From assembly GCA_903831815.1 (NCBI GenBank), contig CAIKZC010000001.1:85037-149036 (forward strand): DNA of 64,000 bases, given 5' to 3'. Both the position numbers and the translations under genes were made by a program. Below the pieces are notes generated by a model. The model saw only the letters and a program-made list of their open reading frames with translations, was not told the origin of the DNA and did no database searches. Below are positions 2,648 to 56,221 of this stretch, piece after piece. Numbering within the stretch: position 1 is the stretch's first letter; every line of letters starts with the position of its first letter. Source of the stretch: an uncultured bacterium. GTDB lineage: Bacteria; Patescibacteriota; Minisyncoccia; Phycocordibacterales; UBA11359.

Positions 2648-2651
2648 CAAC

Positions 2652-2680: not shown

Positions 2681-2688
2681 GTTTTAAT

Positions 2689-26222: not shown

Positions 26223-26372
26223 ATCGCACCTCTTCCTGTAAAAGTTCTGTGAAAGGACATTGAAACTAAACAATTTCTAGCAGAGAAATGCGACGAAGTC
26301 AATACTCGTCGTTTTGTATAAAAAAAGAAAGGACCCTTGCGCTTCGCGCAAGGGTCCATGAAATCTCTGCTA

Positions 26373-27665
26373 TCAAGTCTGCAACATCTCATGGCTAGCT
26401 TCACGAAGCGTTCGCCACAAGTCTTCCGTCGTTTCGGCCCGACGGATCTGTTCGACCATACCATCCTCATGACGCAGAAGCTCCTGCGGAGCGGTGCGTC
26501 CATTGTAATTGGACCTCATCGCAATACTATGTGCTCCGGCTTCATGAACGACGATAATGTCACCAAGCTCGATGAATGGCAGAAGTCGCCGAGTGGCAAA
26601 CCGATCGGTGTTTTCACACGCTGGTCCAACAACATTCACTCGGTACAGCTGACCTCCCTTCACTCTTCCGGATGGATCCAAAACATCAATATGATGATAC
26701 GCACCATAAATGAATGGTCGTGGAATCGAAGCCATCGGACAGGCGTCGACGCCGATATGCGTCTCATAAGTATCCTTGCGATTGATGACCTTGGTCACCA
26801 AGGCGCCGTGAGGACCGGCCATGAATCGCCCGTTCTCCATAAATAAAGACGGGGCCCATCCATGAGCAGTATTGAAATCCATCAGAAGTCGTCTGGTTGC
26901 CGACGTCAATCTCTGGGTATCGAGCGGCTGCTGACTGGGTCTGTAATTCACTCCCCAACCACCACCGACGTTTATGTACCTGCAGCGCTTACCAGTAGCC
27001 TTCTCCAACACTTCGCAACGCTCAAGAAGCATCTTGGTTGTCGCGGCGTGGTATCGCCAGTTGCGCTGATTGGAGCAAATCATCGAGTGGATGCCGGAAG
27101 TTGTGGCACCCGCATTGAACGCTCTCTTGTATGCCGGAACGAATTGCTTGTCAGTCACACCATATTTGGCTTCCTGAGGTTTGCCAATAATGGAGGTACC
27201 TTTTCGTGCCCGACCGGGGTTGAAGCGGAAACAGATGTGGTCGGGGAAATTTTTCCCCATGGACTTACAAATACGCTTTACGGGTTCGACCATGGAAATA
27301 TCATCCAGATTCAGAATGACACCCATGTCGAGTGCTGTCTTAAATTCCTCGGTCGAGGTGTTGTTGGAAGTGAACATAACATCACAACCGGTTGCACCAA
27401 CGGAAGCTGCAAGCTGCAACTCGTGAACAGAACTGCAGTCAAAGCCGAAACCCATACTCCGCATTACTTTCATAATCGAATCGTTGGGCAAAGCCTTGAC
27501 AGCAAAGAATTCCTTGAAGTTAAAGCCCTCAAAGGCTGTATTCAGACAGAGACCGGTTGATTTGATTCCCGCCTCATCATAGATGAAAGCCGGTGAACCA
27601 AACTTGGCGATGATTGTCGGAACATGCGGATAAAGACGACGCTTGAATGACTGCGACAGTGGCAT
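26373..27665 (-). CDS. lysA: Fold-type III PLP-dependent decarboxylase, probable diaminopimelate decarboxylase (ORF extends to 27710)
   Basis: FAVKALPN (PLP-Lys region); ...GPACENTDRF... Flanked by GC-rich terminators (GGACCCTTGCGCttcgCGCAAGGGTCC at 26328-26356). Confidence 0.6.
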   Translation of the reverse strand: MPLSQSFKRRLYPHVPTIIAKFGSPAFIYDEAGIKSTGLCLNTAFEGFNFKEFFAVKALPNDSIMKVMRSMGFGFDCSSVHELQLAASVGATGCDVMFTSNNTSTEEFKTALDMGVILNLDDISMVEPVKRICKSMGKNFPDHICFRFNPGRARKGTSIIGKPQEAKYGVTDKQFVPAYKRAFNAGATTSGIHSMICSNQRNWRYHAATTKMLLERCEVLEKATGKRCRYINVGGGWGVNYRPSQQPLDTQRLTSATRRLLMDFNTAHGWAPSLFMENGRFMAGPHGALVTKVINRKDTYETHIGVDACPMASIPRPFIYGAYHHIDVLDPSGRVKGGQLYRVNVVGPACENTDRFATRRLLPFIELGDIIVVHEAGAHSIAMRSNYNGRTAPQELLRHEDGMVEQIRRAETTEDLWRTLREASHEMLQT

Positions 27666-27857
27666 GAATGCCTCCTTATGATTCTCTGAAAAAGACCTTT
27701 GACAGAACATCTGCCAATTTAATCTGTCCGAATACTACATTTTGAATTAAGGTGTGTCAATAAATAAAAATGCAAAGAAAAACCCGCCGTTTCCTCGGAG
27801 GAAACGGCGGGACTATTCATGAAAGAACCGATCACAAAACGAACGTAGGCCCAGCGA

Positions 27858-29072
27858 TTAGTACGCGACGCTGGCCTTATCGAACGCCTCAGCGATCCCG
27901 TTCGCGTTCGCGAGCACATCGTTAACGACGGCATAGCGAATATATGGATTGAACGGCACACCAAGCACACCAGTGTTCTCAAGCATAAGCCGATTGAAGT
28001 GCTCGGCATCTGTAATCACCTGGCCGAACGCCATCTTCGGCGTCTGCCAGAGAGTGAAGAAACCAGCCTGCGGGGTGACCGCGAGCTTCATTCCTCGCGG
28101 ACGCAAGATGCTGATCAAGGCACGGATGCGCTGATGATACAGCACCTGGGTCGCCTTGACCTCATCCATCCCATTTTCGAGTTGCTCGAGAATACCGATG
28201 GCGGCGAACGCGGCGAACCCGCTGTCTGCATCACCCTTGATGCGGGCGATGTCGTCAATGAAATCCGCGCTACCCACCATGGCACCAATTCGCCAACCAG
28301 TGAAGTTGCCGGCCTTGGAGGCCGAGAATGCTTCCGCCCAGGAAAGACCTGGGAATTGGCATGCGATTTGAGCAAGAGTCGGGTGACCAGATTCGTGAGT
28401 CACCAATGTGTAGGCCGCATCATTGACAAGCCTGATATCACGCTGTTGGCAATAACCGCACACGTGCCTGACCCAATCCTCATCCATCGCCCTCCCCGAA
28501 GGGTTGTGTGGAAAATTCATCATGACCAGACAGCGACCAACCTCCCGCTCCGTCGTGATTTGATCGAGCGTAAAAAGGAAACCGTTGTCTGGGCTCAACT
28601 TCAGAGCAACATGAGAAATATCGGAACCATACACCTCAGACCAATACGCCGGGGTAGGATAGCCGGGGTCGGTGCATGTGAACACTGTGAGATAAGGTGT
28701 GTCACGCGCCACCGCCCCACACGCGAGCGGAATGAGACCGAGCATCGGCTTGATGCCCGGAATCGGCAAATACCCCAAACCCTCAACATCGTCGAGGCAG
28801 TCGCCAACGTGGCAACGCACAAAACGCTTCGCGAAATCAGGAATCGGCAAACAGCCGTTGTCCTGGTATTCATGCATGTTCTGATCGCGCGACATCACCG
28901 CTTTCGCCGTGGCCTTGCAGGCCAGTTCGAGAGCCGGGCCACTTGGCTGACCGATCGAGAGATTGATGACCTTGACACCTTTCTCTTCGGCCGCTCTCCT
29001 TATGGCCTTGTTACGTTGAAACACGTTGCCCGGCGCAGCCGGCAACCACGATGTGAGAGTTGACTTCGCCAC
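27858..29072 (-). CDS. Class I/II aminotransferase, probable LL-diaminopimelate aminotransferase (DapL-like)
   Basis: PLP-Lys motif SASKAGNFTGWRIG; N-terminal NLSIGQP; adjacent to dapB and lysA. Terminator CCCGCCGTTTCCtcggAGGAAACGGCGGG at 27783-27812. Confidence 0.55.
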   Translation of the reverse strand: MAKSTLTSWLPAAPGNVFQRNKAIRRAAEEKGVKVINLSIGQPSGPALELACKATAKAVMSRDQNMHEYQDNGCLPIPDFAKRFVRCHVGDCLDDVEGLGYLPIPGIKPMLGLIPLACGAVARDTPYLTVFTCTDPGYPTPAYWSEVYGSDISHVALKLSPDNGFLFTLDQITTEREVGRCLVMMNFPHNPSGRAMDEDWVRHVCGYCQQRDIRLVNDAAYTLVTHESGHPTLAQIACQFPGLSWAEAFSASKAGNFTGWRIGAMVGSADFIDDIARIKGDADSGFAAFAAIGILEQLENGMDEVKATQVLYHQRIRALISILRPRGMKLAVTPQAGFFTLWQTPKMAFGQVITDAEHFNRLMLENTGVLGVPFNPYIRYAVVNDVLANANGIAEAFDKASVAY

Positions 29073-29241: not shown

Positions 29242-29889
29242 TTATTTAGCAGGAGCTTCAGCGGTAAGAGGTTTTGCAGCTGCGCGAACTCGTTTACGTT
29301 TGGTGACTTCTCGTTTGTCGGCAACTTTCTTGAGAGGCATGCCAATGTGTCGGAGGAGTGCAATTGATTCTTCTTTAGTCTTTGCACTTGTGACAATCGT
29401 AACTGACATTCCAAAAACGTCTTTTAATTCTTCATCAGAAGTTTCCGGAAAAATAACGTGTTCACGAATCCCAACACTAAAGTTACCCATTTCATCAACA
29501 GAACCCGGATTAATTCCGCGGAAGTCTTTAGTTCGAGGAAAAGCGATGTGAATAAGTCGAGTTAGAAAATCTTCCATTCGTTTACCGCGGAGAGTTACTT
29601 GATATCCAACTGGGTCCCCTGCTCGAAGCTTGAAAGAAGCAATAGACTTTTTAGCGCTTCGTAGAGAGGCTTTTTGACCGGTAATTTGAGCGATACGATC
29701 TTCAACTAATTGGCTTTTCTTTTTATCCTTAAATGATCCGGTGCCAACAGAAACAATCACCTTAGTCACTTTAGGTGCTTGCATGACATTTTTGTAACCA
29801 AAAACTGGTTGTAATGCTTTGAAGGCGCTCTGTTGTTTTGCGTGTACGAGTTCCATGGTATTTAAATTACTTATCAGCTCGCTTCTCAA
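29242..29889 (-). CDS. rplE: 50S ribosomal protein L5 with a basic C-terminal extension
   Basis: Ribosomal L5 N-terminal and central consensus. Confidence 0.85.
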   Translation of the reverse strand: MRSELISNLNTMELVHAKQQSAFKALQPVFGYKNVMQAPKVTKVIVSVGTGSFKDKKKSQLVEDRIAQITGQKASLRSAKKSIASFKLRAGDPVGYQVTLRGKRMEDFLTRLIHIAFPRTKDFRGINPGSVDEMGNFSVGIREHVIFPETSDEELKDVFGMSVTIVTSAKTKEESIALLRHIGMPLKKVADKREVTKRKRVRAAAKPLTAEAPAK

Positions 29890-32077: not shown

Positions 32078-32545
32078 TTATTTTTTTGCGGCTTTAGCCG
32101 GTGCTTTGGTAACTTTTGGCGCTTTTACAGCCTTCACTTCAGCCTTATTCTCAGCCATTTTAGCGACTTTGGCGTTTTTCTTAACTTTTGGAGCCTTAAC
32201 ATCCAAAGTAATGGTAACAGTAGAAGTATGTTTGTGAATAGGAAAACCACGTCCGCGGGCCATAGGCATCATGCGTTTTAGAATTGGTCCTTTATCAACA
32301 GTAATCCCCTTTACGATTAGATTGGTCTCGTCAACGCTCAAACTTTTGGCATTTGCGATGGCAGATTTCAAAAGTTTAAGAATTGGGTCAGCTGCGTCTT
32401 TAGGGGTAAACATCAAGGTAGAAACCGCAGTCATAATTGGCTTACCTTTAATAAGATTCGCAACACGGCGAACTTTTCGAGGAGATTGTCGATAATTTGT
32501 AAGGGTAGCGGTAACCATAATATTATGCGGCTTTCTTTTCTTCAA
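32078..32545 (-). CDS. rplV: 50S ribosomal protein L22 with an Ala/Lys-rich C-terminal tail
   Basis: ...[22 protein letters not shown]... Confidence 0.85.
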
Positions 32546-32870
32546 CCGAGGCTTTAGCGGCCTGAGCTGCGGCCATCTCGGACTCTTTCTTCTTCATTTC
32601 AAGCTCCTTCTGCATACGACCTCCGTGTCTTAAGAAGACTTTAGTAGGAGAAAATTCACCAAGTCGGTGACCTACCATTTCTTCTGATACAAGGACATCG
32701 ATATGTTTCTTGCCATTGTACACACCAAAGGTAAAACCAACCATTTCTGGAGAGATTTGACTGCGTCGGTACCATGTCTTAATAACGCCAGTTTCAATTG
32801 GGCGTTTTCCCGCAATCTTCTTGAGAAGCTTGGGTTCGACGAATGGTCCTTTCTTTAGTGATCGTGCCAT
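32523..32870 (-). CDS. rpsS: 30S ribosomal protein S19
   Basis: [18 protein letters not shown]... Confidence 0.9.
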
Positions 32871-33008
32871 GGTGAAAATAAAAAGCCCCTAAGGCCTTGA
32901 TGTAGAATACTATACAAAAGGAGAAAATAAGTCAATACGGCAAACAATATAAAAGCTACAGGCAAAGACTTTGCCTTTCGCCTTATATAAGCTGAGATAA
33001 AATCTTTT

Positions 33009-35552
33009 TTATAGAGGAGAAATTCCGAAGCCGGCGCCGAGGTAGTTGACGATATTTCGAGCTTCAAGTTCCGGGCGCCACGTAGCTTGCGATTGCAATC
33101 TCTCGGCGCCGATAAGTGAACTTAAAGTAGCTGATCCACCAATTGAAGCGCTGTAACTTTCGACGGTGCGAGAAACATCAGGGAAAGTAACCGCTTGTGA
33201 CACCGCACCAGTTTCTTTAGAAAGAGTCAGCCAATTGGTAAATGATTTTGGTGCATCCTGAATCATGAACCAATTTGATGCTGCGGCATTAGTGTAATAT
33301 GTGTTGTTGCTGAATGTTGCTCTAGCGGTTGACAATACTCCTTCAGAAGATACGGATGGAGATTGATAAAGCTTATCCTGGAATTTATTTCCAATAACTT
33401 GAATGTTTGTGAGTGGTCCGGCACTCAGCCCCACGAAACCTTGATTCCAATTGTAGAGAACGTTGTTTGAAATGGTGACATTCTGACTGGCCACAATACT
33501 TTCCAATCTGATACCGAAACTTGTTCCATTATTTGGTTTGTTTAGAAGCAAGTTGTTTGTAATGAGACCGCCATTGATACTTCCTAGATCAATTCCATAA
33601 CTTTGATCGGCTCCACCCAGCACTCTTCCTGTTTCAGTTAGCACATTATTCCGAATTGTGGCATCAATTGCACCATACTGAACCGAGGCTCCTTCTCCGG
33701 TTTTTGCGCCAACCGACATACTATTGCCGTTTGCGGCGAGAAGATTATTTTCGATCAGAACATGATTGGTTAGATTAGCGCCATTTTCGCTTCGCACCAA
33801 TATACCCTCACTTGAGGCATTAGAAATAATGTTATTTCTAATCGTGAGGTTCGTCATGTCATCCAGATACATATTGTGACTACGATCATCAGGCACTTGG
33901 AAACCGGTTTTCCAACCATTATGATCGATCACGTTAAATTCAATCAACATACCGTCAGCCGTTGAAGCAAAAATACCTTGCGATTTTGGTCCTCCAGCAT
34001 TGTAAGCATCAAGAATTCTGGAGCCGCGAATTGTGACGTGACTTGGACCTTTAGATGCATTTAGAGATGTGTCAGGTTCAGCTACAAAGTTATCAATAAA
34101 TCCTTCAATCGTACAATTTTCAACTAAGAAATTATTGCCCGAACCGTAAATGAAGATTCCTGTACCGTTTCCTTGACCTACGAGATGAAGTCCGACCATC
34201 GCAACGTTACTGGTGTTAAGTCCGTAAAAGTTTATGCCATTGTTATCCGCCGTTTCCGAAATAATCGGCTGTGCTCCGGTGCCGTAACTTGAAATTAACA
34301 TTTGCGCTGTAGCCAGTCCGGATTTTCGCCAACTGAAACTTTCATTTGTCCATGTGTCCCCTGCTTTGAGAAGCAACCAGTCCGGATAACCGTCACGAAT
34401 TAAAGAATATCCTTTGGCCAGTGTTTTTACCGGATGAGCTGAATCAAGGCCGGTATTGCTATCATTTCCTCCCGAACTACTGACATAGATTTTCTGAGTA
34501 TTGGCAGCGGCAGTGAAAGTTGTCCAGGTTACAGCGCCAGTTGAAGTTGGTGGCGGAACAACTGGTGGCGGAACAACCGGAGGAGCATACGTGCAAGATT
34601 GAGAGGTGACAGGTGTTCCTGTGCAACCAGCTGGAGCTGAAGTATATGTTCTGGTCTGTGTGTTATTTGACTGACAATCACTCCAAGCACCGTAAGTGTA
34701 TGTGCAAGCCTGTACCGGCGGAACATAAGTACAAGATTGTGACGTCACCGGAGTGCCCGTGCAACCCGTTGGAGTTGACGAAGCGACCGTACGAGTTTGA
34801 GTACTGTTTGATGCACAAGTTCCCCATGCACTGTAAGTATAAGTACAAGCTGAAGGAGGAGTAGTTGTCGAAGATTGATAATCAAAAACCACATCAACCC
34901 AATAATTTCGATTATTCCAAGTACTGGTCGGGAAAGTGTTTATATTGTAAACATAAACTCCGTTAGGTCCATTTTTTGTATTACTTGCCAGAGCGCGAAT
35001 AACTCCATTTTTATGAACAGTGCTGAAATAATTAGAATTTACGGCATAGAAACCGTTTGATGTAGAATACGAAGCGATATAAGGAGTATTGGCGGCAATT
35101 GCTATAGGCGTAGAGAAATTGGCGCTTTGCCATCCGGAAGCAGTTTCATTGATAAAAGTTACTGATCCAAGGAGAGCTCCTGTTGTTGTCCAAAGATGAC
35201 CGACGTGAGTGCCGGTATCACCCGGAATTTTATAAAATTGAATTTGTCTGATGTTTCCCGGGACATCGGTGCGAATTCTGACACCCAACTCAACCGGTTT
35301 ACCTGAACCAGTCTCGGAAGGTTTAACCGTATTGTCCCAAAGCTCAGCGGTACTTATCACAGGAGCAGGCGCGCTCTGTGTATTTGTGACCAAAGTCTCC
35401 GTTTGAGGAGTAACTCCATAGAACAAAGCGGCTGTCTGTTCTTGTAAGGCCGGAATTCCGGTATACAGTACATATGCAGCTATAGATATTACGAGCAAAA
35501 CGAAAACCCAGAGAAGAAGACGTTTCATATATTTATTTAAAAAAACGAGCAT
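33009..35552 (-). CDS. Large cell-surface protein: N-terminal TM anchor, two tandem Cys-rich 47-aa repeats, PPVVPPP linker, and right-handed parallel beta-helix (pectin-lyase-fold) repeats
   Basis: 847 aa. Repeated (I/V)xNN(L/V/I) beta-helix rungs (IRNNIISNA, IENNLLAANG, IRNNVLTETG, ITNNLLLNK, ISNNVLYNW). Two 141-nt tandem DNA repeats at about 34570-34850. Confidence 0.65.
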   Translation of the reverse strand: MLVFLNKYMKRLLLWVFVLLVISIAAYVLYTGIPALQEQTAALFYGVTPQTETLVTNTQSAPAPVISTAELWDNTVKPSETGSGKPVELGVRIRTDVPGNIRQIQFYKIPGDTGTHVGHLWTTTGALLGSVTFINETASGWQSANFSTPIAIAANTPYIASYSTSNGFYAVNSNYFSTVHKNGVIRALASNTKNGPNGVYVYNINTFPTSTWNNRNYWVDVVFDYQSSTTTPPSACTYTYSAWGTCASNSTQTRTVASSTPTGCTGTPVTSQSCTYVPPVQACTYTYGAWSDCQSNNTQTRTYTSAPAGCTGTPVTSQSCTYAPPVVPPPVVPPPTSTGAVTWTTFTAAANTQKIYVSSSGGNDSNTGLDSAHPVKTLAKGYSLIRDGYPDWLLLKAGDTWTNESFSWRKSGLATAQMLISSYGTGAQPIISETADNNGINFYGLNTSNVAMVGLHLVGQGNGTGIFIYGSGNNFLVENCTIEGFIDNFVAEPDTSLNASKGPSHVTIRGSRILDAYNAGGPKSQGIFASTADGMLIEFNVIDHNGWKTGFQVPDDRSHNMYLDDMTNLTIRNNIISNASSEGILVRSENGANLTNHVLIENNLLAANGNSMSVGAKTGEGASVQYGAIDATIRNNVLTETGRVLGGADQSYGIDLGSINGGLITNNLLLNKPNNGTSFGIRLESIVASQNVTISNNVLYNWNQGFVGLSAGPLTNIQVIGNKFQDKLYQSPSVSSEGVLSTARATFSNNTYYTNAAASNWFMIQDAPKSFTNWLTLSKETGAVSQAVTFPDVSRTVESYSASIGGSATLSSLIGAERLQSQATWRPELEARNIVNYLGAGFGISPL

Positions 35553-35700
35553 TAAACACTATTAATACTTTAATTGTATACTTGTCAAATATTTAGGCTA
35601 CGCAAGTTATCCACAGGGGGGATAAAATGTTTTATTTAAAAAAACTCCGCATAATCGTCTTTTGGACTTTTACACGGAGACCTTTCCTTCCAGCGAACGA

Positions 35701-36315
35701 TCATGTTCTGACAACGGTGCCCAAAAATTCATCCAGCTCAGCTTGTTCTTCAGGACCGATTTTTGACCCCTCATCGATCATGAGCAACAAATTCCCCTCT
35801 TGGAACGCGATTCTCCTCTGCGGTTTCTGTTCGATAGAACCGATGAGAATGATCTTTACGTTCGGCACAGGCGCATCATAACGACGGCAATGAGAAAGAC
35901 AGAAAGTTGTCGAAAGTAGGATACCCCCAAGCTCCTCCAATTGAGGCTCTGCAAGTTGTACCCACCGGTTTTCGTCACGCTCTTGCTGTTCGGGTCTCGC
36001 GAATTCGAGCCTGACCACGTAACCAAAACCCATCCCACGATGCTTCTCGGGATAGACGTGCGCCAAAACAAAACCTGCCTGCTCCATCTCACGCAAGATC
36101 CCCGAAGCAGTGACCCGCCTCTGCATTCCCCATATCTGCTGAGGTGCAGGATAGAGGATGACCTTCTCCGATCGTGGAACCGGTATGCCGTTTACGATGG
36201 CATACTGAAAAGTCTTCAGGGCGCCAACTGTTTCTTCCCCGCCCATAAAATAGACGGAGACGGCGCCAATATCGGCCAAACTCACACCATTGAGACACAT
36301 CATGACTAACCTCAT
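35701..36315 (-). CDS. Hypothetical protein (204 aa) in a GC-rich patch
   Basis: Continuous ORF spanning a region with GC well above background. No confident motif. Confidence 0.4.
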   Translation of the reverse strand: MRLVMMCLNGVSLADIGAVSVYFMGGEETVGALKTFQYAIVNGIPVPRSEKVILYPAPQQIWGMQRRVTASGILREMEQAGFVLAHVYPEKHRGMGFGYVVRLEFARPEQQERDENRWVQLAEPQLEELGGILLSTTFCLSHCRRYDAPVPNVKIILIGSIEQKPQRRIAFQEGNLLLMIDEGSKIGPEEQAELDEFLGTVVRT

Positions 36316-36390
36316 ATGAAAAGACCTTAATTAGAACTCTTTCGAGAAATTATCACTAAATATCAAATTCGTCAAACGGAAACACAAAAC

Positions 36391-37038
36391 CTATTCATGA
36401 AATCCAATTTTTTCTTTTTTCGGTTCTTCCGGTTCCTCCAGTACCGGTTTCTTCAGCCGTTCTAATGATTCCACGGATTCCGCCAGTTTCTCTATAACAC
36501 CAAACACGATTTGAAAATTTTCGCCATATTTTTTCTCCAAATCATCCAGGCGATGAGCGAGTTCGCTATTCAGAGACAAAATCTGGCGCAATTTCACAAA
36601 AGTTTTAATGATGGCAATGCTCATGGCCACTGCCCGCGGGCTATTAAGCACCGTAGCGGCCATAAGCGCACCGTGTTCGGTAAAGGCGTAGGGTAAGAAA
36701 CGACGTTTGCTAAAATTTGCGGTTCCAAATTGGAACCGCAAATTTTGACCCTTTTTCAAGGTCGCAATTTGCGACCTTGAAACCTGATCTTCGTTCAAGG
36801 TTCCAATTTGGAACCTTGAACGAAGATACTCTGCTTCACTTTTTGTAAGCTGAAACATAAATTCTGCAGGAAAACGATCAATATTACGTTGTACCGCCTT
36901 ATTTAAATTCTTTGTCTTTACTCCATACAAACTCGCCAAATCACTGTCCAAAATCACCTTTTGATTACGAATAATTAAAATTATCTGCTCCACCCTCTCC
37001 TCCGGCGCAAGACCCACGCCATTGATATTTTTGTTCAT
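36391..37038 (-). CDS. ORF6N-domain (KilA-N-like) protein, paralog 1, with an in-frame roughly 120-nt palindromic expansion
   Basis: ...IRNQKVILDSDLASLYGVKTKNLNKAVQRNIDRFPAEFMFQLT...RFLPYAFTEHGALMAA... is the ORF6N signature. It carries an extra segment QIGTLNEDQVSRSQIATLKKGQNLRFQFGTANFSK relative to paralog 2 (55468-55974). Confidence 0.75.
   Translation of the reverse strand: MNKNINGVGLAPEERVEQIILIIRNQKVILDSDLASLYGVKTKNLNKAVQRNIDRFPAEFMFQLTKSEAEYLRSRFQIGTLNEDQVSRSQIATLKKGQNLRFQFGTANFSKRRFLPYAFTEHGALMAATVLNSPRAVAMSIAIIKTFVKLRQILSLNSELAHRLDDLEKKYGENFQIVFGVIEKLAESVESLERLKKPVLEEPEEPKKEKIGFHE
36710..36827. repeat. Three consecutive long palindromes (35, 29 and 41 nt) inside the ORF6N paralog-1 CDS
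   Basis: aaaatttgcGGTTCCaaattGGAACCgcaaatttt; tttcaaGGTCGCAAtttGCGACCttgaaa; atcttcgttcaaGGTTCCAAtttGGAACCttgaacgaagat. Confidence 0.8.
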
Positions 37039-37085
37039 GCCAAAAGCCTAACAAATGGAGATAAAATATTAATAAAATCCAGCTA

Positions 37086-37384
37086 TTGACAAAATCTTGG
37101 CTTATGCTAAGATACAAGAGGAAAATTTCAGAAAGTCTCTTGGCACTAACTGACCCGTTCTTGGAACTGATCATTCTAAAGGGCGCACTCAGAAGGCCGG
37201 TGATAGTCATGCACCTTAGCTGAAACTCTTCGTGAGATTCGAGGTTTCAGTGACAAAAGAGCGGAATCCTCACTAAGGGAAGCGTATGCACATGTCGCGA
37301 CCCCTGATTTTTTTAAAAATGTGCCGGTCATTGGACCGAGAACGAACAAACCCCTCAGCTACGCTTGATGAGGGGTATTTTCTT
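37086..37384 (+). ncRNA. Candidate small RNA: orphan promoter (TTGACA-16-TAAGAT) to an intrinsic terminator, with no ORF
   Basis: -35 at 37086-37091 and -10 at 37108-37113. Terminator CCCCTCAgctacgcttgaTGAGGGGtattttctt at 37351-37384. No ORF over 30 aa on this strand. Convergent with the downstream gene. Confidence 0.4.
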
Positions 37385-37405
37385 GGCCAAAAAACTAAAA
37401 ACTAC

Positions 37406-38029
37406 TTAAACACTGAGTATTTCAAACCTCTCACCCTCGACAAAAACGGCTTGGTCGTCGTTTAGGAAAATGAGCGGAGTTTTGTTTTCCGCGAGGTGCT
37501 CCATAACTTTCTTATTATCCGCTACAATATCGGGATTATTGGTATGCGGCAAGATCATGAAGTTGACCAATCCCAAAGCTCTATAATCGGATATCAAGTT
37601 GAGGTATTCCGTTTCCCCACCATCGTACTGCGCCAAGGTCACATCTTTTGCCGCTATCATGGAACCCGCGCTCGTGCCGGTGTATATAATTTCACCCTTC
37701 CGCACAGCGTCAACCACCACCCCTGCGAGACCGCTCTTCTGCAACACCGACAAAAGAAGCAACACACTGCCCCCGCAAAAATGAATAACCTCTGACCTCC
37801 CCAAAAGCTCCCTCATCTCCTCTTTTGTCGTCTTCCTCAAATCAACATCAACAATTTCACAACCCAAAGACGTAAACGCTTCCCTGTCGCTCCGCACCCA
37901 CCACGGCTCTTCAACCTCATCCGCCGCGTTCCTAATAAACATCACCTGGCAGCCCTTCCCCACCTTCGGTGCTTTCATCGCGAGAATCGAAATCGTATTT
38001 TGCAAACTTGAGGCGAGGAAGAGGGTCAT
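37406..38029 (-). CDS. Peptidase S51 family (dipeptidase E-like)
   Basis: GTSAGS nucleophile motif; IHFCGG; 207 aa. Confidence 0.7.
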   Translation of the reverse strand: MTLFLASSLQNTISILAMKAPKVGKGCQVMFIRNAADEVEEPWWVRSDREAFTSLGCEIVDVDLRKTTKEEMRELLGRSEVIHFCGGSVLLLLSVLQKSGLAGVVVDAVRKGEIIYTGTSAGSMIAAKDVTLAQYDGGETEYLNLISDYRALGLVNFMILPHTNNPDIVADNKKVMEHLAENKTPLIFLNDDQAVFVEGERFEILSV

Positions 38030-38034
38030 GGTTA

Positions 38035-38574
38035 TTATTTTATACCTCCAAAATTATACTTCCATCCCGGCTGCCATTTGAAGTGAGTCGATGTTAATTG
38101 CTCAAGCGTTACACCATTGATTAAATTTTCCAAACCAAACTGTGTTGCTCTATGACCGATTATCATAACTCGCTTGCCATCATAATTTTTAAACAAGTCT
38201 TCTAAAAAAGATTTCATTCGTACAGTTGTTTGAGTATAACTTTCACCATTAGGAAAAGGCGTTGAAATTCTTTGTGGTTTTTCCTTATCAACAATCTCGC
38301 TGGGTTTTTGAGTAAAATCACCATAGTTACATTCTCGTAACCGAGCGTCTTTTACAATCGGCCATTTATTACCAAAACCAATTTCTGCACTATTGTATGC
38401 ACGTTGAAGATCAGAGCAAAAGATTGCATCAAAATGATCATTTTTATATCGCTCTCCCATTTCTTTTGATTGTTGAATACCTAAAGGAGACAAAGCCACG
38501 TCATTGTGTCCGGACGCTAAATGAGCTTCGTTATCAAATGTAGTTCCGTGTGCTTCAAATATTATTTCAATCAT
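38035..38574 (-). CDS. Histidine phosphatase family protein (phosphoglycerate-mutase-like)
   Basis: N-terminal EAHGTT catalytic His motif, a variant of RHG; 179 aa. Confidence 0.65.
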   Translation of the reverse strand: MIEIIFEAHGTTFDNEAHLASGHNDVALSPLGIQQSKEMGERYKNDHFDAIFCSDLQRAYNSAEIGFGNKWPIVKDARLRECNYGDFTQKPSEIVDKEKPQRISTPFPNGESYTQTTVRMKSFLEDLFKNYDGKRVMIIGHRATQFGLENLINGVTLEQLTSTHFKWQPGWKYNFGGIK

Positions 38575-38668
38575 AAAATTATTCTAATATTTTTGATTTA
38601 TCACCAACTGTAATTGTACCAAAAAGAAAGGCCGGCGGAAAACTAATCTTTACTTTTTTAATATTATA

Positions 38669-39883
38669 TTGTATTTTAGTAAGATGTTATTCGAAGAACT
38701 GATAAAAAAACATCTGGCCGGAATAGATCTCGACCTTAGAAAAAAACCTGATGGATATTCTCGTTACATGGATCAAAAGGTCACACCGGATGTTTTAACT
38801 TTTATCGCCGACTGCATTGTAAATTTTTTAGGCGGAAAAAAATCTGACACAATTTTCACAACTAAAGATATTTGGGATTTTCAATATTTCCAGAAAAACA
38901 TCGTTGCTATATTTGGTAAACCATCTCCTACAAACGAAAGTGCAAATGCAGAATACGATAAGTTTATTGCTCAACCACTTAAAACTTTAGCATTTGCAAA
39001 GATATTGGAAGAAAAGAAAGTGGGGGTACGAAATACATACCAAGTCATTCAGCCAGAATTGTTGGAGTACATTTCACAAAACGAACGAAATGCTTGGGTA
39101 TTCCTTGTTGTGTATGTTGAAAAAGTTCTAACTGATAGCGGTTTTATTAAAGAGTTAAATTCTTTTAAGACTAAGTCACTTTCTGGAACGGTGACTCAAG
39201 AAGATTTTGAACTCCTCAAAGCAAAATTTGAATCTTTCATGCTTGGATATACAAACATAACAACTGATGTTGAAATTAGACGTATTTTTCCTAAAGTCTT
39301 AAATCCTTACGCAGCTTACAACATGATTAACGGCTCAGAAGATGGGCATATGACAGAAAGTAGATTCGTTTATTCTGACTTAATGTATAACCGATCAAAT
39401 TTTCGAGATTTAGGAAAAGACAAAGCCCTGACAAGAAGTGAGGCTGAAGAAATTTTTATTGGTAAACCAGAATTTTCTGATTACAGAACACAAAAAGCAA
39501 AAAATATTGTAAGAAGAAATCATTCAACCAGCGAGATTCGTGACAAATTGGCTGTCGGAGATGCTACTCAGGTTCACCACATATTCCCCGAACATCAGTT
39601 TCCTAAAATCTCGGCTTTTGTTGAAAATTTAATCCTGTTAACACCACAACAACACAACACAAGAGCTCATCCGAATAACCACACTCAATCTATTGATCGA
39701 GATTATCAACGTGAGTGTATTTTGTCTAAAATTACTTCAATTGAATCTTCAATCAGACAAGGGAAAGACATTTATTCAAAAGAGTCGTTGATCCATGTTC
39801 TAAACACAGGGCTCTCGTTGGACATGTCAACAAACACAACATTCAACGAATTAAGGGAAGTTGTAAAAAAAACGTACGCTTAA
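38669..39883 (+). CDS. Putative HNH-motif (beta-beta-alpha-Me) nuclease, candidate restriction endonuclease
   Basis: C-terminal ...VHHIFPEHQFPKISAFVENLILLTPQQHNTRAH (H-H...N...H). Convergent and overlapping with the MTase stop. AT-rich island. Confidence 0.45.
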   Translation: MYFSKMLFEELIKKHLAGIDLDLRKKPDGYSRYMDQKVTPDVLTFIADCIVNFLGGKKSDTIFTTKDIWDFQYFQKNIVAIFGKPSPTNESANAEYDKFIAQPLKTLAFAKILEEKKVGVRNTYQVIQPELLEYISQNERNAWVFLVVYVEKVLTDSGFIKELNSFKTKSLSGTVTQEDFELLKAKFESFMLGYTNITTDVEIRRIFPKVLNPYAAYNMINGSEDGHMTESRFVYSDLMYNRSNFRDLGKDKALTRSEAEEIFIGKPEFSDYRTQKAKNIVRRNHSTSEIRDKLAVGDATQVHHIFPEHQFPKISAFVENLILLTPQQHNTRAHPNNHTQSIDRDYQRECILSKITSIESSIRQGKDIYSKESLIHVLNTGLSLDMSTNTTFNELREVVKKTYA

Positions 39884-42405
39884 TTTTTCACTTGTACTCC
39901 AAAAAAGAATACCGAGTTGTTATCAATATTTAATGACCTTGTACCATGGTTTCGGGCTACTCGATAGAACTCAGTAAATTCTTCGGTTCCAAAATAAGCT
40001 AGATCTTTTTCGGTTATTTTAACGTCAGTTCCTTTTTGAGTAAGAATCGCCACAGATCCATCTACAAGCGTGTTTTCAGGTAAGAATGATGCTCTGGGAG
40101 CATATGTTAGATTCGGTACCAAAACACTTTTATCTTTATTCCAAAATTTTGATATTGATAAACCCTCTAACGAATCGACGTAGGAATCATAATTTGGAAT
40201 ATTTATTATTTCATTTCGCCCAATATTTCTTGATTTCAATATTCGTATTTTCCCTTTGTTTTTTGTTATCTTTTTAGTAATTTGTCGATCTCTATAGGAG
40301 GTAAATATATTGAATCTAAGTTTTCTTGCAACAAAGTCAAAGAAACTATTTCTATACACCAGCCAATACGGAAAATCTTTTGAACATATATATGACTGAT
40401 CCTTGTAACCAATTTCATTTTTTACATAAGATTCAATAAGAGTTCGTGTACCTTTGTTTCTAGTATTAACAATTAAACTTATCGTCTCAATCTTTACCCC
40501 CTTGAATCCTTTCTCGCCATAATCTGTAATTTTTTCTACAGCAAAGGACGATACAAGTTCTCTTGTTTTGTTGAATTCTGGTGCAGACAGAAAGCTTTTA
40601 GGAATAATCAGACCGACCGTATCTCCCAACTGAATTGCTTTTTCAAGAAAATATGAGAAAAGGTTATTTGTTTCTGTATTGTATTTGTCTTTTTTATAAA
40701 CACTCAGAAGTTGTTTATTTTCTGATATATCTCCAAATGGAGGGTTCCCGACAACAATATCATAGTGCTTAGATTGTTTAAATAGATTAGTTTCACCATA
40801 CAGTAGAAAGTCGGCGTTTATCAAATTGATTTTTACATTTTTAGGTATATCAATTTTTTTAAGTAAAATCCTTAGAATCTCAATTGCGTTTTTATCTATA
40901 TCAATAACGTCGATTTCTACATCACTAACTATTTTGTATTTTTCAATAAGTAATGGAAGAAAATTTCCAGCCCCAACAGATGGCTCTAATATAGAGACTT
41001 TTTCAAATTTAGATGCATCTGGTAAATCTTTTATAATAGTGAAACAAATATCTTGTCTTGTGTAATAAGCGGCATGTTGAAAGCGTTGAGCATTTGAATG
41101 TTCAACCATCTTTGCCAATTCAGGGTAATTTAGATCTTTTATGTTTTCTTTAAGAAATATTTTTAGATTTTCTTCTATGTAAAGTCTCTTCTCCTTAATA
41201 AGTTTTTTTATTTGGGTTTCATTCTTCTCTATATTCTTGAATTTTAAATTTATATTTTTAGCTATTCCATTGAATATGACAGTAGGTACCGCTTCACCAA
41301 GAGATTGTCTAATATTAATCTCTTCTTTTTTAAGGATCTTCCTTTTCTCTTCGTCAGACAGTTTATTTAGGTCGTTTAGTGAGATAGACACCCAATTAAA
41401 AGAATTCGGAACAGACATCATTCGCATTAATTCTCTAATACTGAAAACTCTATTGTCTTTCGGATGAATTGTAGCTTGACTGGCTAATATATCGTTTCTT
41501 GTATGAACACAGGGGGCAACCTTATCCCAATAACATCGAGAATACTTGTCTCCATTTTTATTTTCATTACTTACAATTTTTCCATTTACAATTTGATGGG
41601 GTCGTCTCTTAGGATCAACGTTATCAAACGCGGATTGACCTTCCTTAGTATTCTCTATCCAAGGAAGCATGTGTTCAGAATATGGTCGAAAATTGTGGTA
41701 AATATCTTTTTTATCAATCTCACCCATTTTCCTCAGAGGAGCAAGGTCTCCAATCGCGCCTCGCAAAGTGCTGCCATTTTTTAAGGGAGGCATTAAATCT
41801 AACGGTGTGACTTCATGAATATCTTTTCTTACGCCAATTACTAGTGTTCTTGTTCTACTAGATGGGTTACCGTAATCTTTGAAATTAATTATTTGATAGT
41901 GAATGTTATATTTGCCACCCAAGTTCAATTCTATTGCCTCACGAATTTTTTTCTGATTTTTATCAGTATCAGTACAAAGGCTAGAAAGAAAGGCTCGTAC
42001 ATTTTCAAAAATAAATACCTTTGGTCTAATTTTATCCACAAGTTTGATTGATTCAACAACAAGTGAATTTCGTGCCAACTCATCTCCTTTCTTATGGTTT
42101 GCAACCGACATCCCCTGACATGGAGGTGTTGCTAACAGAACGTCGATTTCTTTTAATCCTTGCTTTGATTTCCAAAGATCAATCTCTGAAAAGATTTTGT
42201 TTTGCGTACTTTTTTTTGTAATATCATCATTTATATATCCACTAGAATATGTGCATGTGTTATTATGTTTTTGAACATCTAAACGTCTGCTAATCAGTTC
42301 GACAGTTGCAACACAATCAAAACCCTCTTTCGAGAAGCCGTAGCATCCAACGCCAGCACTACTAAATAGGCTTATGTATGTTAATTTTTTACGCTGATTA
42401 TTCAT
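39880..42405 (-). CDS. Fused DNA methyltransferase: N-terminal C5-cytosine MTase plus C-terminal amino-MTase (NPPF, N6-adenine/N4-cytosine type)
   Basis: m5C motifs I LFSSAGVGCYGF, IV PPCQGMS, VI FIFENV. C-terminal motif I EPSVGAGNF and motif IV VVGNPPFG. 841 aa, GC about 30%. Confidence 0.8.
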   Translation of the reverse strand: MNNQRKKLTYISLFSSAGVGCYGFSKEGFDCVATVELISRRLDVQKHNNTCTYSSGYINDDITKKSTQNKIFSEIDLWKSKQGLKEIDVLLATPPCQGMSVANHKKGDELARNSLVVESIKLVDKIRPKVFIFENVRAFLSSLCTDTDKNQKKIREAIELNLGGKYNIHYQIINFKDYGNPSSRTRTLVIGVRKDIHEVTPLDLMPPLKNGSTLRGAIGDLAPLRKMGEIDKKDIYHNFRPYSEHMLPWIENTKEGQSAFDNVDPKRRPHQIVNGKIVSNENKNGDKYSRCYWDKVAPCVHTRNDILASQATIHPKDNRVFSIRELMRMMSVPNSFNWVSISLNDLNKLSDEEKRKILKKEEINIRQSLGEAVPTVIFNGIAKNINLKFKNIEKNETQIKKLIKEKRLYIEENLKIFLKENIKDLNYPELAKMVEHSNAQRFQHAAYYTRQDICFTIIKDLPDASKFEKVSILEPSVGAGNFLPLLIEKYKIVSDVEIDVIDIDKNAIEILRILLKKIDIPKNVKINLINADFLLYGETNLFKQSKHYDIVVGNPPFGDISENKQLLSVYKKDKYNTETNNLFSYFLEKAIQLGDTVGLIIPKSFLSAPEFNKTRELVSSFAVEKITDYGEKGFKGVKIETISLIVNTRNKGTRTLIESYVKNEIGYKDQSYICSKDFPYWLVYRNSFFDFVARKLRFNIFTSYRDRQITKKITKNKGKIRILKSRNIGRNEIINIPNYDSYVDSLEGLSISKFWNKDKSVLVPNLTYAPRASFLPENTLVDGSVAILTQKGTDVKITEKDLAYFGTEEFTEFYRVARNHGTRSLNIDNNSVFFFGVQVKN

Positions 42406-42557
42406 CCCTTACATTATAACTTTTATAAGTTTTTCTGGGAAGGGCTATTTTCAATATTAACTAATGATAAGGTCTTTTGGAAAAATATTTTTTAATCAAC
42501 ATGGCTAAAGAAATATTTATACAATCAACAACATTTTTTATTTTCTTTGTAAATTCA

Positions 42558-43244
42558 TTAAAATGGCTTTGGATACGACTTCATTGGTCCAATAATTTCA
42601 TAAAACTTCTTTAAGTTAACGATAACAGATCCATTATTTGAAAAAATTTTCTTTTTGTGTAATACAGATAAGTCGATGTCGTCTTGGGAAAAATTATCAT
42701 TTGCGACTACATAAAAAAGTTTACCAGAAAAGTTTTTATACTTATCAATTTTTATATTTATATTGTTTTGTAAATTAAGCATTGTATCAGTATTAAAAAT
42801 ATCAACACCAAAATTACCGTCTGGAGAATAAACATAAAAATCTACCCTATTTCTTGAATCATCAAAAATTTTCTCAGTATGTACGAAGACCTCACCAAAT
42901 TTATTTTTTAAAATTCTCTCTAAAGCCAACTCACTGGCACGCCCCCTTTTATTAACACGGAGAGCTATCTCACTCCTAAATTTACCTTTTCCAAAATGAA
43001 CATCTTCATAACCTAAAACCGAGCGCAATTGTTGCAAACCTCCAAATCTTCTTTCAATCATTTTCCGATTCGGCAAGAATTCAAATGAATCTAATTCTAT
43101 AGAACCTGGATACCTTCCGTTTAGTTCTTTAAAATATTCAAATCCGTCTTTAAGATTTTCAAGACTCCATTTCTCTCCAACAACATTTTTAATATTCTTT
43201 TTTAAATTTTTATATTTTTCCATTAGATTTAAATACGTAGCCAA
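42558..43244 (-). CDS. Hypothetical protein (228 aa) in the R-M island; possible nuclease partner
   Basis: Co-directional with the MTase. Weak PD-(D/E)xK-like pattern (VDFYVY...GVDIFNTD). Speculative. Confidence 0.4.
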   Translation of the reverse strand: MATYLNLMEKYKNLKKNIKNVVGEKWSLENLKDGFEYFKELNGRYPGSIELDSFEFLPNRKMIERRFGGLQQLRSVLGYEDVHFGKGKFRSEIALRVNKRGRASELALERILKNKFGEVFVHTEKIFDDSRNRVDFYVYSPDGNFGVDIFNTDTMLNLQNNINIKIDKYKNFSGKLFYVVANDNFSQDDIDLSVLHKKKIFSNNGSVIVNLKKFYEIIGPMKSYPKPF

Positions 43245-43270
43245 GCAATACTATATTTGAACTATTTTAA

Positions 43271-43780
43271 TTAGTAAAAACAGTTAAATATAGGAGTTTT
43301 TGTTAGTAGTGAACTTAAAATTGCTGTTGCTACAGCTGAACCGATACCAACAAGAATAGCTAACCAAAAATTCCTTTGTTCTTTGCGCTGTTCGTTTGTT
43401 TTATACCCATTATTTCTAAAAGCCAAAAGACCGGACTGCATTTCAACCTGCCAACTCATTGCATAATCTTTTGTTCCAAGCTTATTAAGATAAAATATTG
43501 GACCAAAAATAGCTTCATCCTCTTTTCCAAGATTAAATTTAGTAAATCCATTGAAAATATTCACACTCTCACTTCTACGGTTTCTGGTTATTGAAATAAG
43601 TTTTTCTCTTTCTAAAAAATCTAAGGTATAGAAAATACCATCAAGTTCCTTTAGTAATTCCAACAAATTTGGTTTCAAATGTTCAAAATTATTGAATCCT
43701 TTTTTCTCAGTTAAAAGCTGACCAAGAAACGGTTCTCTTCTCGTTAGAATTAAATCTACAAGTTTCGTATGAATTTCCAT
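43271..43780 (-). CDS. Hypothetical protein (169 aa) with a C-terminal TM helix
   Basis: ORF with C-terminal hydrophobic segment LAILVGIGSAVATAILSSLL. Confidence 0.4.
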   Translation of the reverse strand: MEIHTKLVDLILTRREPFLGQLLTEKKGFNNFEHLKPNLLELLKELDGIFYTLDFLEREKLISITRNRRSESVNIFNGFTKFNLGKEDEAIFGPIFYLNKLGTKDYAMSWQVEMQSGLLAFRNNGYKTNEQRKEQRNFWLAILVGIGSAVATAILSSLLTKTPIFNCFY

Positions 43781-43864
43781 GTGTTTTAAATTATTTTAAC
43801 TCTACTACTTTTACAGTGAACTACAAGTATCTAATGGGATATGATTTTGATTTTACACAAGCGC

Positions 43865-43966
43865 GAAAGACCGTGCCTTGCAGGGTGCCTCGCACAGGCC
43901 GACTGGGCCGAGCGGAGCGGACGGCCAGCAGGCCGGAACGCGTGCATCCCTAAAGGCATGGTCTGT
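43865..43966 (+). repeat. Element B copy 2
   Basis: Closing stem AGACCGTGCC...GGCATGGTCT. The core has GGCCgactgGGCC where copy 1 has GCGCgactgGCGC, a compensatory change. Followed by the terminator AAAAAACCACCtttcGGTGG at 43986-44012. Confidence 0.65.
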
Positions 43967-44011
43967 AGCGCTTTTGTGACAACAAAAAACCACCTTTCGG
44001 TGGCTCTTTGT

Positions 44012-44863
44012 TTACTTCCCACTCTTTGCCTTCCCCACTCTCCTTCTCGTCACAATCAAATGATTTGAATATCTCTTTGCTCGTCGTGACTTCTGTCCCT
44101 TGCCCGTTGGCTTGCCGTAAACAGACTTTGCGCGTCGAGTTCCTCGTCCCTGTCGTCCTTCACCTCCTCCGTATGGATGGTCAACTGGGTTTTGAGCAGT
44201 ACCTCGAACGGTTGGGCGAATACCTAACCATCGACTTCGTCCTGCTTTACCAATATTGATCAATCGGTTTTCCTCGTTGGAAACAACACCGATAGTTGCG
44301 AAACAGGTATCGATAACTCGTCGTACTTCAGTTGAAGGCAACTTTAGGTGCACATATCCGGCATCGTGAGCAATAACTTCAACGAAGTTACCGGCAGACT
44401 TTGCAAGTCGTGCGCCACCATTAGCATTTACTTCAACGTTGTAAACGAAAGTACCGACTGGAATGTTCTTGAGCATCATTGAATTTCCAACTTTGATCTC
44501 GGCTTTTGGCGAAACAATGAACTCACTGCCAACTTTCATACCTTGTGGAAGTACAACGTATCGTTTCTCGCCATCTTTGTATTGAGCGAGAGCGATGAAG
44601 GCTGTACGGTTTGGATCGTATTCAACAGTCATGAGAGTGGCAGGAATATCTCGTTTGTTATATGTAAAATCAACTTCTCGATAGAGTCGTTTGTGTCCTG
44701 ATCCCTTATGACGTGTGGTGATAATACCTCGGTTGTTGCGTCCTACAGCACGTTTGAAGCCATGAGTAAGTGATTTCTCAGGGTCGTTCGTAGTCACGAT
44801 CTTGTTAAATTCGATCGTGGTCATCGCTCGTCGAGGGATACTGGTTGGTTTATATGATTTCAT
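44012..44863 (-). CDS. rplB: 50S ribosomal protein L2
   Basis: ...GRNNRGIITTRHKGSGHKRLYR... Confidence 0.9.
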   Translation of the reverse strand: MKSYKPTSIPRRAMTTIEFNKIVTTNDPEKSLTHGFKRAVGRNNRGIITTRHKGSGHKRLYREVDFTYNKRDIPATLMTVEYDPNRTAFIALAQYKDGEKRYVVLPQGMKVGSEFIVSPKAEIKVGNSMMLKNIPVGTFVYNVEVNANGGARLAKSAGNFVEVIAHDAGYVHLKLPSTEVRRVIDTCFATIGVVSNEENRLINIGKAGRSRWLGIRPTVRGTAQNPVDHPYGGGEGRQGRGTRRAKSVYGKPTGKGQKSRRAKRYSNHLIVTRRRVGKAKSGK

Positions 44864-55467: not shown

Positions 55468-55974
55468 TTACCCATGAAAACCAATTCTCGGTTTTTCCTT
55501 CTCTTTTGGTTGAATTGGAGGTTCCATAAGTTGTTTTATAGCTCGAAAAACAACTTGAAAATGTTGATCGTATTTTTTCTCCAACTCATCCAATCGACGA
55601 ACCAAGTCTTTGTTAACAGAAAGAATTTGGCGCAATTTTATAAAAGTCCTTACTATTGCCACACTCATAACAATAGCTTGTGGACTGTTTAATACGTTAG
55701 CCGCCATCAATGCACCATGCTCAGTAAATGCATATGGCAAGTAACGACGCCCGCCATAACTTGAGGTCACAAATTGTGACCTCAAGTTTTGCACTTCTTC
55801 CAAACTCAACTGAAACATAAAATCTTCAGGAAAACGATCAGGATTCCTTTTAACTGCCTGATTTAAAACCTTTGTCTCCACACCATACAAATTTGCCAAA
55901 TCCCTGTCCAAAATCACCTTTTGATTACGAATAATTAAAATTGCCTGTTCTACCCTCTCCAGTTTTTTATTCAT
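55468..55974 (-). CDS. ORF6N-domain (KilA-N-like) protein, paralog 2
   Basis: ...IRNQKVILDRDLANLYGVETKVLNQAVKRNPDRFPEDFMFQLS...LRSQFVTSSYGGRRYLPYAFTEHGALMAANVL. The LRSQFVTSS motif is encoded by the 27-nt perfect palindrome CTTGAGGTCACAAATTGTGACCTCAAG (55769-55795). Confidence 0.8.
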   Translation of the reverse strand: MNKKLERVEQAILIIRNQKVILDRDLANLYGVETKVLNQAVKRNPDRFPEDFMFQLSLEEVQNLRSQFVTSSYGGRRYLPYAFTEHGALMAANVLNSPQAIVMSVAIVRTFIKLRQILSVNKDLVRRLDELEKKYDQHFQVVFRAIKQLMEPPIQPKEKEKPRIGFHG

Positions 55975-56048
55975 CCCAAAACCGTAGCATTTTGGAGATA
56001 AAATATTTATAAAATCTATTTGATATTTTTTATATTTTATTTAATGCG

Positions 56049-56149
56049 GAAGACTATGCCTTGAAGGGTGCCTTGCGCAGCGCGACTGGCGCGAGCGGAG
56101 CGGACGGCCAGTAGGCCGGAACGCGTGCATCCCAAAAGACATAGTCTGC
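56049..56149 (+). repeat. Element B copy 3
   Basis: Closing stem AGACTATGCC...GACATAGTCT. Core near-identical to copy 1, with GGCCagtaGGCC. Followed by terminator AAAAAACCACCgagcGGTGGTTTTTT at 56165-56200. A TTGATA-17-AATGCG promoter-like sequence sits upstream at about 56009-56040. Confidence 0.65.
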
Positions 56150-56221
56150 AGCATTTACATACAAAACAAAAAACCACCGAGCGGTGGTTTTTTGTTTTGT
56201 ATTTATGTTTTTGCTTTCAGA

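Follow-up and report, generated by a model that had tools for sequence, protein, structure and literature searches.

In a 64,000-nucleotide (nt) stretch of contig CAIKZC010000001.1 from an uncultured member of the Patescibacteria (hereafter the window, to which unlabelled coordinates refer), a restriction endonuclease gene and a fused DNA methyltransferase gene adjoin each other between the ribosomal-protein genes rplB and rpsS. Judged from their sequences, the two genes very probably form a complete Type IIS restriction–modification (R-M) system of the HpyAV/Hin4II family, which is probably active and was horizontally acquired. As a mechanism the pair is ordinary, being a new member of a known family and no new system. 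Its context, a split ribosomal operon as a possible recurrent cargo site with a G+C-rich repeat at the edge, may be the most interesting lead, above the R-M system itself.

The fused methyltransferase and the convergent nuclease

An earlier note on this DNA, made from the letters alone, had described four open reading frames (ORFs) in an AT-rich stretch, all of which are present in the window where it placed them. The fused DNA methyltransferase gene (39880-42405, minus strand) encodes 841 amino acids (aa) and is supported by PADLOC, Pfam and homologues. The nuclease ORF is open for 404 aa from TTG 38669 (38669-39883, plus strand). Because homologues begin at ATG 38684 (MLFEEL...), that codon is the likelier start, and the nuclease most likely comprises 399 aa (38684-39883, plus strand). 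The two genes are convergent, and their stop codons overlap by 4 bp in the sequence TTAA (39880-39883). The methyltransferase gene is preceded by a 152-nt gap that extends to the 228-aa ORF, and a promoter-like site, TTCCCA-17-TATAAT (42413-42441, minus strand), is positioned 8 nt upstream of its ATG; this is the top-scoring site of the region in a consensus scan, and it is a consensus match only. No controller (C) protein gene is present with the R-M pair.

The 841-aa protein is composed of two methyltransferases. The N-terminal half (about aa 1-395; 41221-42405, minus strand) is a C5-cytosine methyltransferase, identified by Pfam (DNA_methylase, PF00145, E = 4.6e-40, aa 9-339), by PADLOC, by sequence matches to M.HaeIII and M.HhaI in the PDB, and by its motifs. 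Specifically, it contains motif I (FSSAG, within LFSSAGVG at aa 14), motif IV (PCQ, within PPCQG at aa 95), motif VI (ENV, within FENV at aa 134) and motif X (GEAVP, at aa 370), and it is complete, as the earlier note had claimed. The C-terminal half (about aa 440-841; 39883-41088, minus strand) is a gamma-class N6-adenine methyltransferase, identified by Pfam (Eco57I, E = 1.6e-15, and N6_Mtase, E = 2.2e-07, aa 443-651), by PADLOC, and by a PDB sequence match to M.TaqI (aa 531-681). In this half, EPSVGAGNF (aa 474) precedes NPPF (aa 554), which is the order of the gamma class and agrees with the class first proposed, and a C-terminal target-recognition region follows.

In PADLOC, the methyltransferase matches the profile MTase_II PDLC03277 end to end (E = 6.4e-230; aa 6-837 on profile positions 5-818 of 823), while its C5 half matches PDLC03370 (387 positions, E = 7e-144, aa 6-392) and its N6-adenine half matches PDLC03382 (445 positions, E = 3.5e-90, aa 401-837). 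These three are by far the best PADLOC methyltransferase profiles, the next one reaching 5e-55. PADLOC matches to the methyltransferases of DISARM and Druantia were also considered and rejected, being far weaker than those to the Type II profiles and lacking the partner genes. Full-length homologues of the methyltransferase, 82-89% identical, are found in other Patescibacteria contigs.

The nuclease bears an HNH motif at its C terminus (HHIFP...ENLILLTPQQH), as had been seen in the sequence before. Residues H303, H304, N320 and H329 in the 404-aa numbering, corresponding to H298, H299, N315 and H324 in the 399-aa numbering, are the catalytic residues and are invariant in 10 and in 46 homologues. 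Over its whole length (aa 9-401) the protein matches the PADLOC profile REase_II PDLC03488 (E = 1.4e-100; profile positions 3-397 of 430), a profile that does not name its source enzymes. Pfam (E<=0.01) and NCBIfam assign it to no family, and a PDB sequence search with the nuclease returned no match. The data thus directly support the integrity of both genes, their domains and their catalytic residues.

The structural model of the nuclease predicted by AlphaFold from 46 sequences has a predicted local distance difference test score (pLDDT) of 87 and a predicted template-modelling score (pTM) of 0.81. Its N-terminal region is large and is followed by a disordered linker (aa 240-258), after which comes a C-terminal domain bearing the HNH residues. 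Structurally, the N-terminal region most resembles winged-helix DNA-binding domains, among them the one in DpnI. In the model, the C-terminal cleavage domain is a predicted HNH (beta-beta-alpha-Me) domain and the N-terminal part a predicted DNA-recognition region of winged-helix type. A recognition region joined by a flexible linker to a separate cleavage domain, as modelled here, is the usual layout of a Type IIS enzyme.

Probable placement in the HpyAV/Hin4II family

HpyAV of Helicobacter pylori 26695 (hp0053/hp0054) and Hin4II of Haemophilus influenzae RFL4 are Type IIS systems with the specificity CCTTC 6/5. The three best PADLOC methyltransferase profiles have 823, 387 and 445 positions, exactly as many as the residues published for M.HpyAV (823 aa), M1.Hin4II (387 aa) and M2.Hin4II (445 aa; PMC2816704, Table 2). 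M.HpyAV (hp0054) is a true fusion, the C5 part of which is homologous to M1.Hin4II and the N6-adenine part to M2.Hin4II (PMC2816704). The methyltransferase of the window is built in the same way, with the C5 domain at the N terminus and the gamma-class N6-adenine domain at the C terminus, and is of similar size (841 aa versus 823 aa). Furthermore, the HpyAV and Hin4II nucleases are 419 and 418 aa long, and the HNH site of HpyAV was mapped by mutagenesis to H294, H295, N311 and H320 (PMC2816704). The window nuclease, of about 400 aa, likewise carries its HNH motif at the C terminus, and its H-H-N-H residues have the same spacing of 1/16/9 and almost identical positions.

As in HpyAV and Hin4II, the nuclease and methyltransferase genes adjoin, although in those systems M is followed by R in the same direction, whereas here the two genes are convergent with overlapping stops. 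The hosts also differ, a Patescibacteria metagenome-assembled genome in this case and animal-associated bacteria in the other two. The match of the nuclease to PDLC03488 is attributed to HpyAV/Hin4II because of the companion methyltransferase profiles and because HpyAV is unlike any known restriction enzyme except Hin4II (PMC2816704). The pair is therefore related to this family: the case for the placement, though indirect, is strong, since three profile lengths that match exactly are joined by the domain mapping, the catalytic spacing and the architecture.

We infer that the pair is active in this organism and, by homology, that it most likely recognises CCTTC/GAAGG and cleaves at 6/5. Single-molecule real-time (SMRT) sequencing assigned 5-methylcytosine (m5C) in CCTTC and N6-methyladenine (m6A) in GAAGG to hp0054, under the class 'Gamma,5mC' (PMC3936762). 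The earlier note had proposed that the double methyltransferase serves an asymmetric, Type IIS-like site, and M.HpyAV, with m5C on CCTTC and m6A on GAAGG, is a match for that proposal (PMC2816704, PMC3936762). In the mechanism that we envisage, the 841-aa methyltransferase would protect the host on both strands of the asymmetric site. Specifically, the N-terminal half would add a C5-methyl group to a cytosine in the pyrimidine-rich strand, while the C-terminal gamma-class half would add an N6-methyl group to an adenine in the purine-rich strand; the two chemistries would be fused because only C is available for methylation in one strand and only A in the other. The 399-aa nuclease would recognise the same site through its N-terminal winged-helix-type region, and its single HNH centre, at the C terminus, would cleave the DNA a few bases away on one side. 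A Taylorbacteria-like genome of the Patescibacteria would have taken up the pair horizontally.

Several points weigh against this placement. Two large protein searches, one with the window nuclease and one with a profile built from the nucleases on the Acinetobacter and Psychrobacter plasmids, and two cluster look-ups gave no match labelled HpyAV or Hin4II and only generic 'restriction endonuclease' names. The exact methyltransferase sequence is recorded on one contig only. The specificity could differ from that of HpyAV and Hin4II by one or more bases. The site CCTTC occurs 123 times in the 64-kb window versus 121 times expected, a count that is uninformative rather than contrary, and neither CCTTC nor GGTGA nor GTCTC gives a signal of avoidance in the window.

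It is unlikely that the system has recently decayed and no longer restricts, or that it persists mainly as a selfish addiction module and not for defence against phages. R-M pairs are known to act as addiction modules, the pair is positioned in a cargo segment of fast turnover, and the window displays no avoidance of the site in host DNA, all of which would fit such a reading. Against it, both ORFs are of full length with all catalytic residues intact, and an identical nuclease gene is found in contigs from several other samples at the same junction (Peptidase_S51-His_Phos-R-M).

Less probable still is membership in another HNH Type IIS family with a C5 and N6-adenine methyltransferase pair, such as HphI (GGTGA), MnlI (CCTC) or the GTCTC-type enzymes Alw26I, Eco31I and Esp3I. 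These families follow the same general logic of an asymmetric site, m5C plus m6A, and an HNH nuclease. In particular, Alw26I, Eco31I and Esp3I combine an HNH nuclease with an m6A/m5C methyltransferase pair or fusion at an asymmetric site, as here, and the domain order of M.Alw26I and M.Esp3I, m6A then m5C, is the reverse of that in the 841-aa protein. The N6-adenine half has a weak partial match to TIGR02987, the adenine methyltransferase of Alw26I/Eco31I/Esp3I (60.3 bits, aa 446-580), but this score is far under the cut-off of 353.5. HphI, which Lubys is said to have described in 1996, reportedly has separate m5C and m6A methyltransferases and an HNH nuclease, with all genes in one direction. 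Nucleases of the HphI type belong to the Pfam family HNH_2 (PF13391; PMC5714182), whereas the window nuclease matches no Pfam family. Furthermore, the lead of the 823-, 387- and 445-position PADLOC profiles over all others argues for HpyAV/Hin4II.

Linkage of the pair and its two neighbours

The linkage of the nuclease and the methyltransferase was examined by tblastn in 85 loci, comprising plasmids, close homologues and 80 species genomes. The nuclease adjoins a C5 plus N6-adenine methyltransferase in every one of the 85 loci with enough flanking DNA. The genes are either convergent with the same 4-bp overlap (the Patescibacteria type) or arranged as M then R in one direction (Bacteroidota), the latter being the arrangement in HpyAV and Hin4II. 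A plasmid of Acinetobacter towneri carries split M1, M2 and R genes, like Hin4II, while a Psychrobacter plasmid carries the fused methyltransferase form; a literature search on plasmid pA18P2 found nothing. This adjacency, together with the end-to-end match to a Type II restriction-enzyme profile, bears out the earlier assignment of the convergent HNH protein as the endonuclease of the system.

The family is widespread. Nuclease homologues number 1476-3035 in the protein collection, where the source databases call a few of them 'restriction endonuclease' or 'type II R-M system restriction endonuclease', and relatives occur in 347 genomes of a one-genome-per-species collection and on 11 viral contigs. 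The 80 loci kept from the scan of that collection include no species of Table 2 of PMC2816704, and a preprint on methyltransferases of the candidate phyla radiation contained nothing relevant to this family. The neighbours outside the pair vary by host, with a serine recombinase in locus L003 and LexA in locus L004, and of the 17 host loci checked, 16 have a pair that is richer in A+T than the flanking DNA. These changing neighbours and the AT-rich composition fit a horizontally moving two-gene module, and both strict linkage across genomes and mobility are directly supported. In two Patescibacteria loci (L076 and L084), the methyltransferase is 84-85% identical to that of the window, against an identity of only 47-48% for the adjacent nuclease; divergence or exchange has thus been much more rapid in the nuclease gene there than in its methyltransferase.

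Two further ORFs lie upstream of the methyltransferase gene on the same strand, namely the 228-aa ORF (42558-43244, minus strand) and the 169-aa ORF (43271-43780, minus strand), the product of which has a hydrophobic C-terminal segment. A single composite defence system that unites the four AT-rich genes, with the 228-aa PD-(D/E)xK protein and a membrane-anchored 169-aa protein as working parts, is very improbable. The four genes are adjacent and all low in G+C (29-35%; nuclease 34.9%, methyltransferase 32.6%, 228-aa ORF 29.1%, 169-aa ORF 31.0%), and the 228-aa protein has a nuclease fold. However, tblastn found no homologue of the 228-aa or the 169-aa ORF in any of the 85 R-M loci, and in loci L096 and L098 the gene for the homologue of the 228-aa protein is solitary, surrounded by housekeeping genes and without a methyltransferase in its vicinity. 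In loci L003, L004 and L005, other, unrelated genes flank the R-M pair, and the methyltransferase gene has its own promoter-like site within the gap before it. The earlier view of the four genes as one defence island is thus not supported: neither the 228-aa nor the 169-aa ORF is conserved together with the R-M pair, and both are independent genes that share the variable, AT-rich cargo segment with it.

Structure prediction shows that the 228-aa protein has the PD-(D/E)xK fold for which the earlier note had proposed a check, and the idea of a second nuclease of the R-M system is not upheld. The model (pLDDT 83) contains an N-terminal helical domain and a C-terminal alpha-beta-beta-beta-alpha-beta core. 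Residues E105, D135, D148 and K168 are invariant, with K168 outside a (D/E)xK triplet. The family comprises about 180 proteins of about 207 aa, nearly all from Patescibacteria and 50-60% identical. The 228-aa gene is a solitary, independent nuclease-like gene, perhaps selfish or engaged in repair. The gene just upstream of its homologue in L098 (7238-7717 of that locus) encodes an HNH-like motif, HNLELICPNCH, which suggests that small nuclease genes cluster at sites such as this one. The 169-aa ORF was compared with this upstream ORF of L098, and the two are unrelated. It has no match in Pfam, PHROG, PADLOC or NCBIfam, and 51 representatives at E<=1e-3 among 1.84 billion proteins.

A selfish or homing role for the HNH protein, beside an orphan methyltransferase unrelated to it, for which weak PHROG matches of the nuclease to phage HNH endonucleases (E 1.5e-4 to 0.06) and the many HphI-related HNH proteins without methyltransferase neighbours (PMC2441816) might speak, is extremely improbable in view of the strict adjacency to the same methyltransferase across phyla and on plasmids, the full-length match to a Type II restriction-enzyme profile and the large non-HNH N-terminal DNA-recognition region kept across the nuclease family, and the nuclease does not group with homing or transposon nucleases, the outcome that the earlier note had named as telling against its reading.

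The variable segment between rplB and rpsS

The R-M pair is flanked at a distance by rplB (44012-44863), which ends at 44012 with a terminator hairpin, and rpsS (32523-32870), which starts at 32870. The earlier note had placed the island between these normally adjacent genes, and the flanking holds; however, the two genes are 11.1 kb apart, and the AT-rich part occupies only 5.2 kb beside rplB. The low G+C content holds as well, at 31.9% (38575-43830), although the value for comparison is 43.1% in the rest of the window and not the roughly 39% given for the flanks. Between the AT-rich part and rpsS, there are genes for His_Phos_1, Peptidase_S51 and ORF6N proteins, a 204-aa ORF, and a gene for an 847-aa DUF4082/beta-helix protein.

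Comparison with a close relative defines the limits of the segment. Locus L102 has an rplB in the same 90% cluster, and its DNA is 78-83% identical to the window. In a blastn alignment of the two, synteny (81% identity) stops at 43962 and resumes at 32935, and L102 holds only 1.7 kb between rplB and rpsS, encoding RelB, YafQ and one other ORF. The whole 11.0 kb from 32936 to 43961, which is mixed in composition (29-51% G+C), is therefore variable cargo. Contigs of the same population from other samples repeat two of its junctions at 99.95-100% identity, rplB-repeat-169 aa and Peptidase_S51-His_Phos-R-M. When target-site duplications or element ends were sought on either side of the island, the matches were all short, AT-rich and attributable to chance.

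The gap between rplB and rpsS was surveyed in 80 metagenome loci with rplB relatives (62-91% identity), of which 58 were informative and 22 uninformative. The distance from rplB to rpsS is <300 nt in 22 loci, 300-1100 nt in 14 and 1.2-6.2 kb in 9, and rpsS is absent within at least 2 kb of rplB in 13, some of which are operon rearrangements. In total, rpsS does not directly follow rplB in 36 of the 58 informative loci. The 67 ORFs found in the gaps include six histidine kinases, HicA, RelB/YafQ, DDE transposases, RhuM, a diaminopimelate-pathway trio, and two other Type II restriction enzymes with methyltransferases. The closest relative, L115, carries an EcoRI-type methylase, GmrSD_N/HNH and HTH-SocA/Panacea. 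None of the surveyed gap loci shares the cargo of the window.

At the rplB-side edge of the segment, directly after the rplB terminator, there is a G+C-rich repeat of about 85-105 nt (copy 1, 43863-43969, minus strand). Two further copies are found in the window, one after secY (20848-20954, minus strand) and one before an ORF6N paralogue (56046-56152, minus strand), and each of the three is positioned just past a gene end or terminator hairpin. RNAalifold folds the three copies into a multi-stem structure; it has 29 pairs, and compensatory changes among the copies affect 3 of these. A search of Rfam with the repeat returned no family even at E<=1. In L102, the corresponding position after rplB is taken by a different insert, the ends of which are similar.

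Other features of the segment and the window are as follows. The 847-aa gene (33009-35552) lies directly upstream of rpsS, a position kept in other-sample contigs of the same population, and its product looks secreted, with DUF4082, threonine/proline-rich cysteine repeats and a right-handed beta-helix. The two ORF6N paralogues (36391-37038 and 55468-55974), which are KilA-N/anti-repressor-like and match the PADLOC candidate PDC-S05, are 85% identical over 150 nt. The first of them contains perfect palindromes in its coding sequence at 36712-36746 (17-nt arms) and 36787-36827 (20-nt arms). A second break in the operon (25362-29072) separates rpsN (24904-25089) from rplE (29242-29889) and contains DapB-like, diaminopimelate-decarboxylase-like and aminotransferase genes; in L102, this junction is occupied by purine-biosynthesis and pilin-like genes, and the same diaminopimelate trio is found in the rplB/rpsS gap of loci L146, L152 and L163. 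Elsewhere in the window there are a tRNA-Ile gene with anticodon TAT (2574-2648) and a transfer-messenger RNA (tmRNA) gene (5548-5962). Terminator-like modules are repeated downstream of the latter (5956-5999 and 7341-7384), and further repeat pairs lie at 6014-6137/7395-7518 and 7899-7994/8508-8603.

We put forward tentatively, as a reading somewhat short of probable, that the rplB-rpsS gap is a clade-wide landing site for mobile cargo in Paceibacteria/Taylorbacteria-like genomes, in which the repeat may take part in turnover or be a small RNA and the 228-aa gene may be a selfish insertion helper. The S10 ribosomal-protein operon is normally unbroken, and this site within it would receive R-M systems, toxin-antitoxin pairs, transposases and sensor kinases. 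Translation genes are reported to be enriched in the genomic islands of Patescibacteria (PMC12455944), and a search of the literature found no description of an rplB/rpsS hot spot. If the proposal is true, the R-M pair of the window is one instance of a defence hot spot inside an essential, highly expressed operon. The split operon would then offer a marker site that is useful in studies of gene flux among ultra-small bacteria, and it would call for caution with tools that assume syntenic, single-copy ribosomal-protein blocks.

For the R-M system itself, the finding extends the HpyAV/Hin4II family into the Patescibacteria and shows that the size of the family, with thousands of proteins and relatives in 347 genomes, greatly exceeds the dozen members given in a 2010 list. 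A Type IIS enzyme of the CCTTC type, or a near variant, might be obtained from this pair. The fused C5/N6-adenine methyltransferase would mark each site on both strands, which matters for the transformation and the methylome-based binning of these uncultured bacteria.

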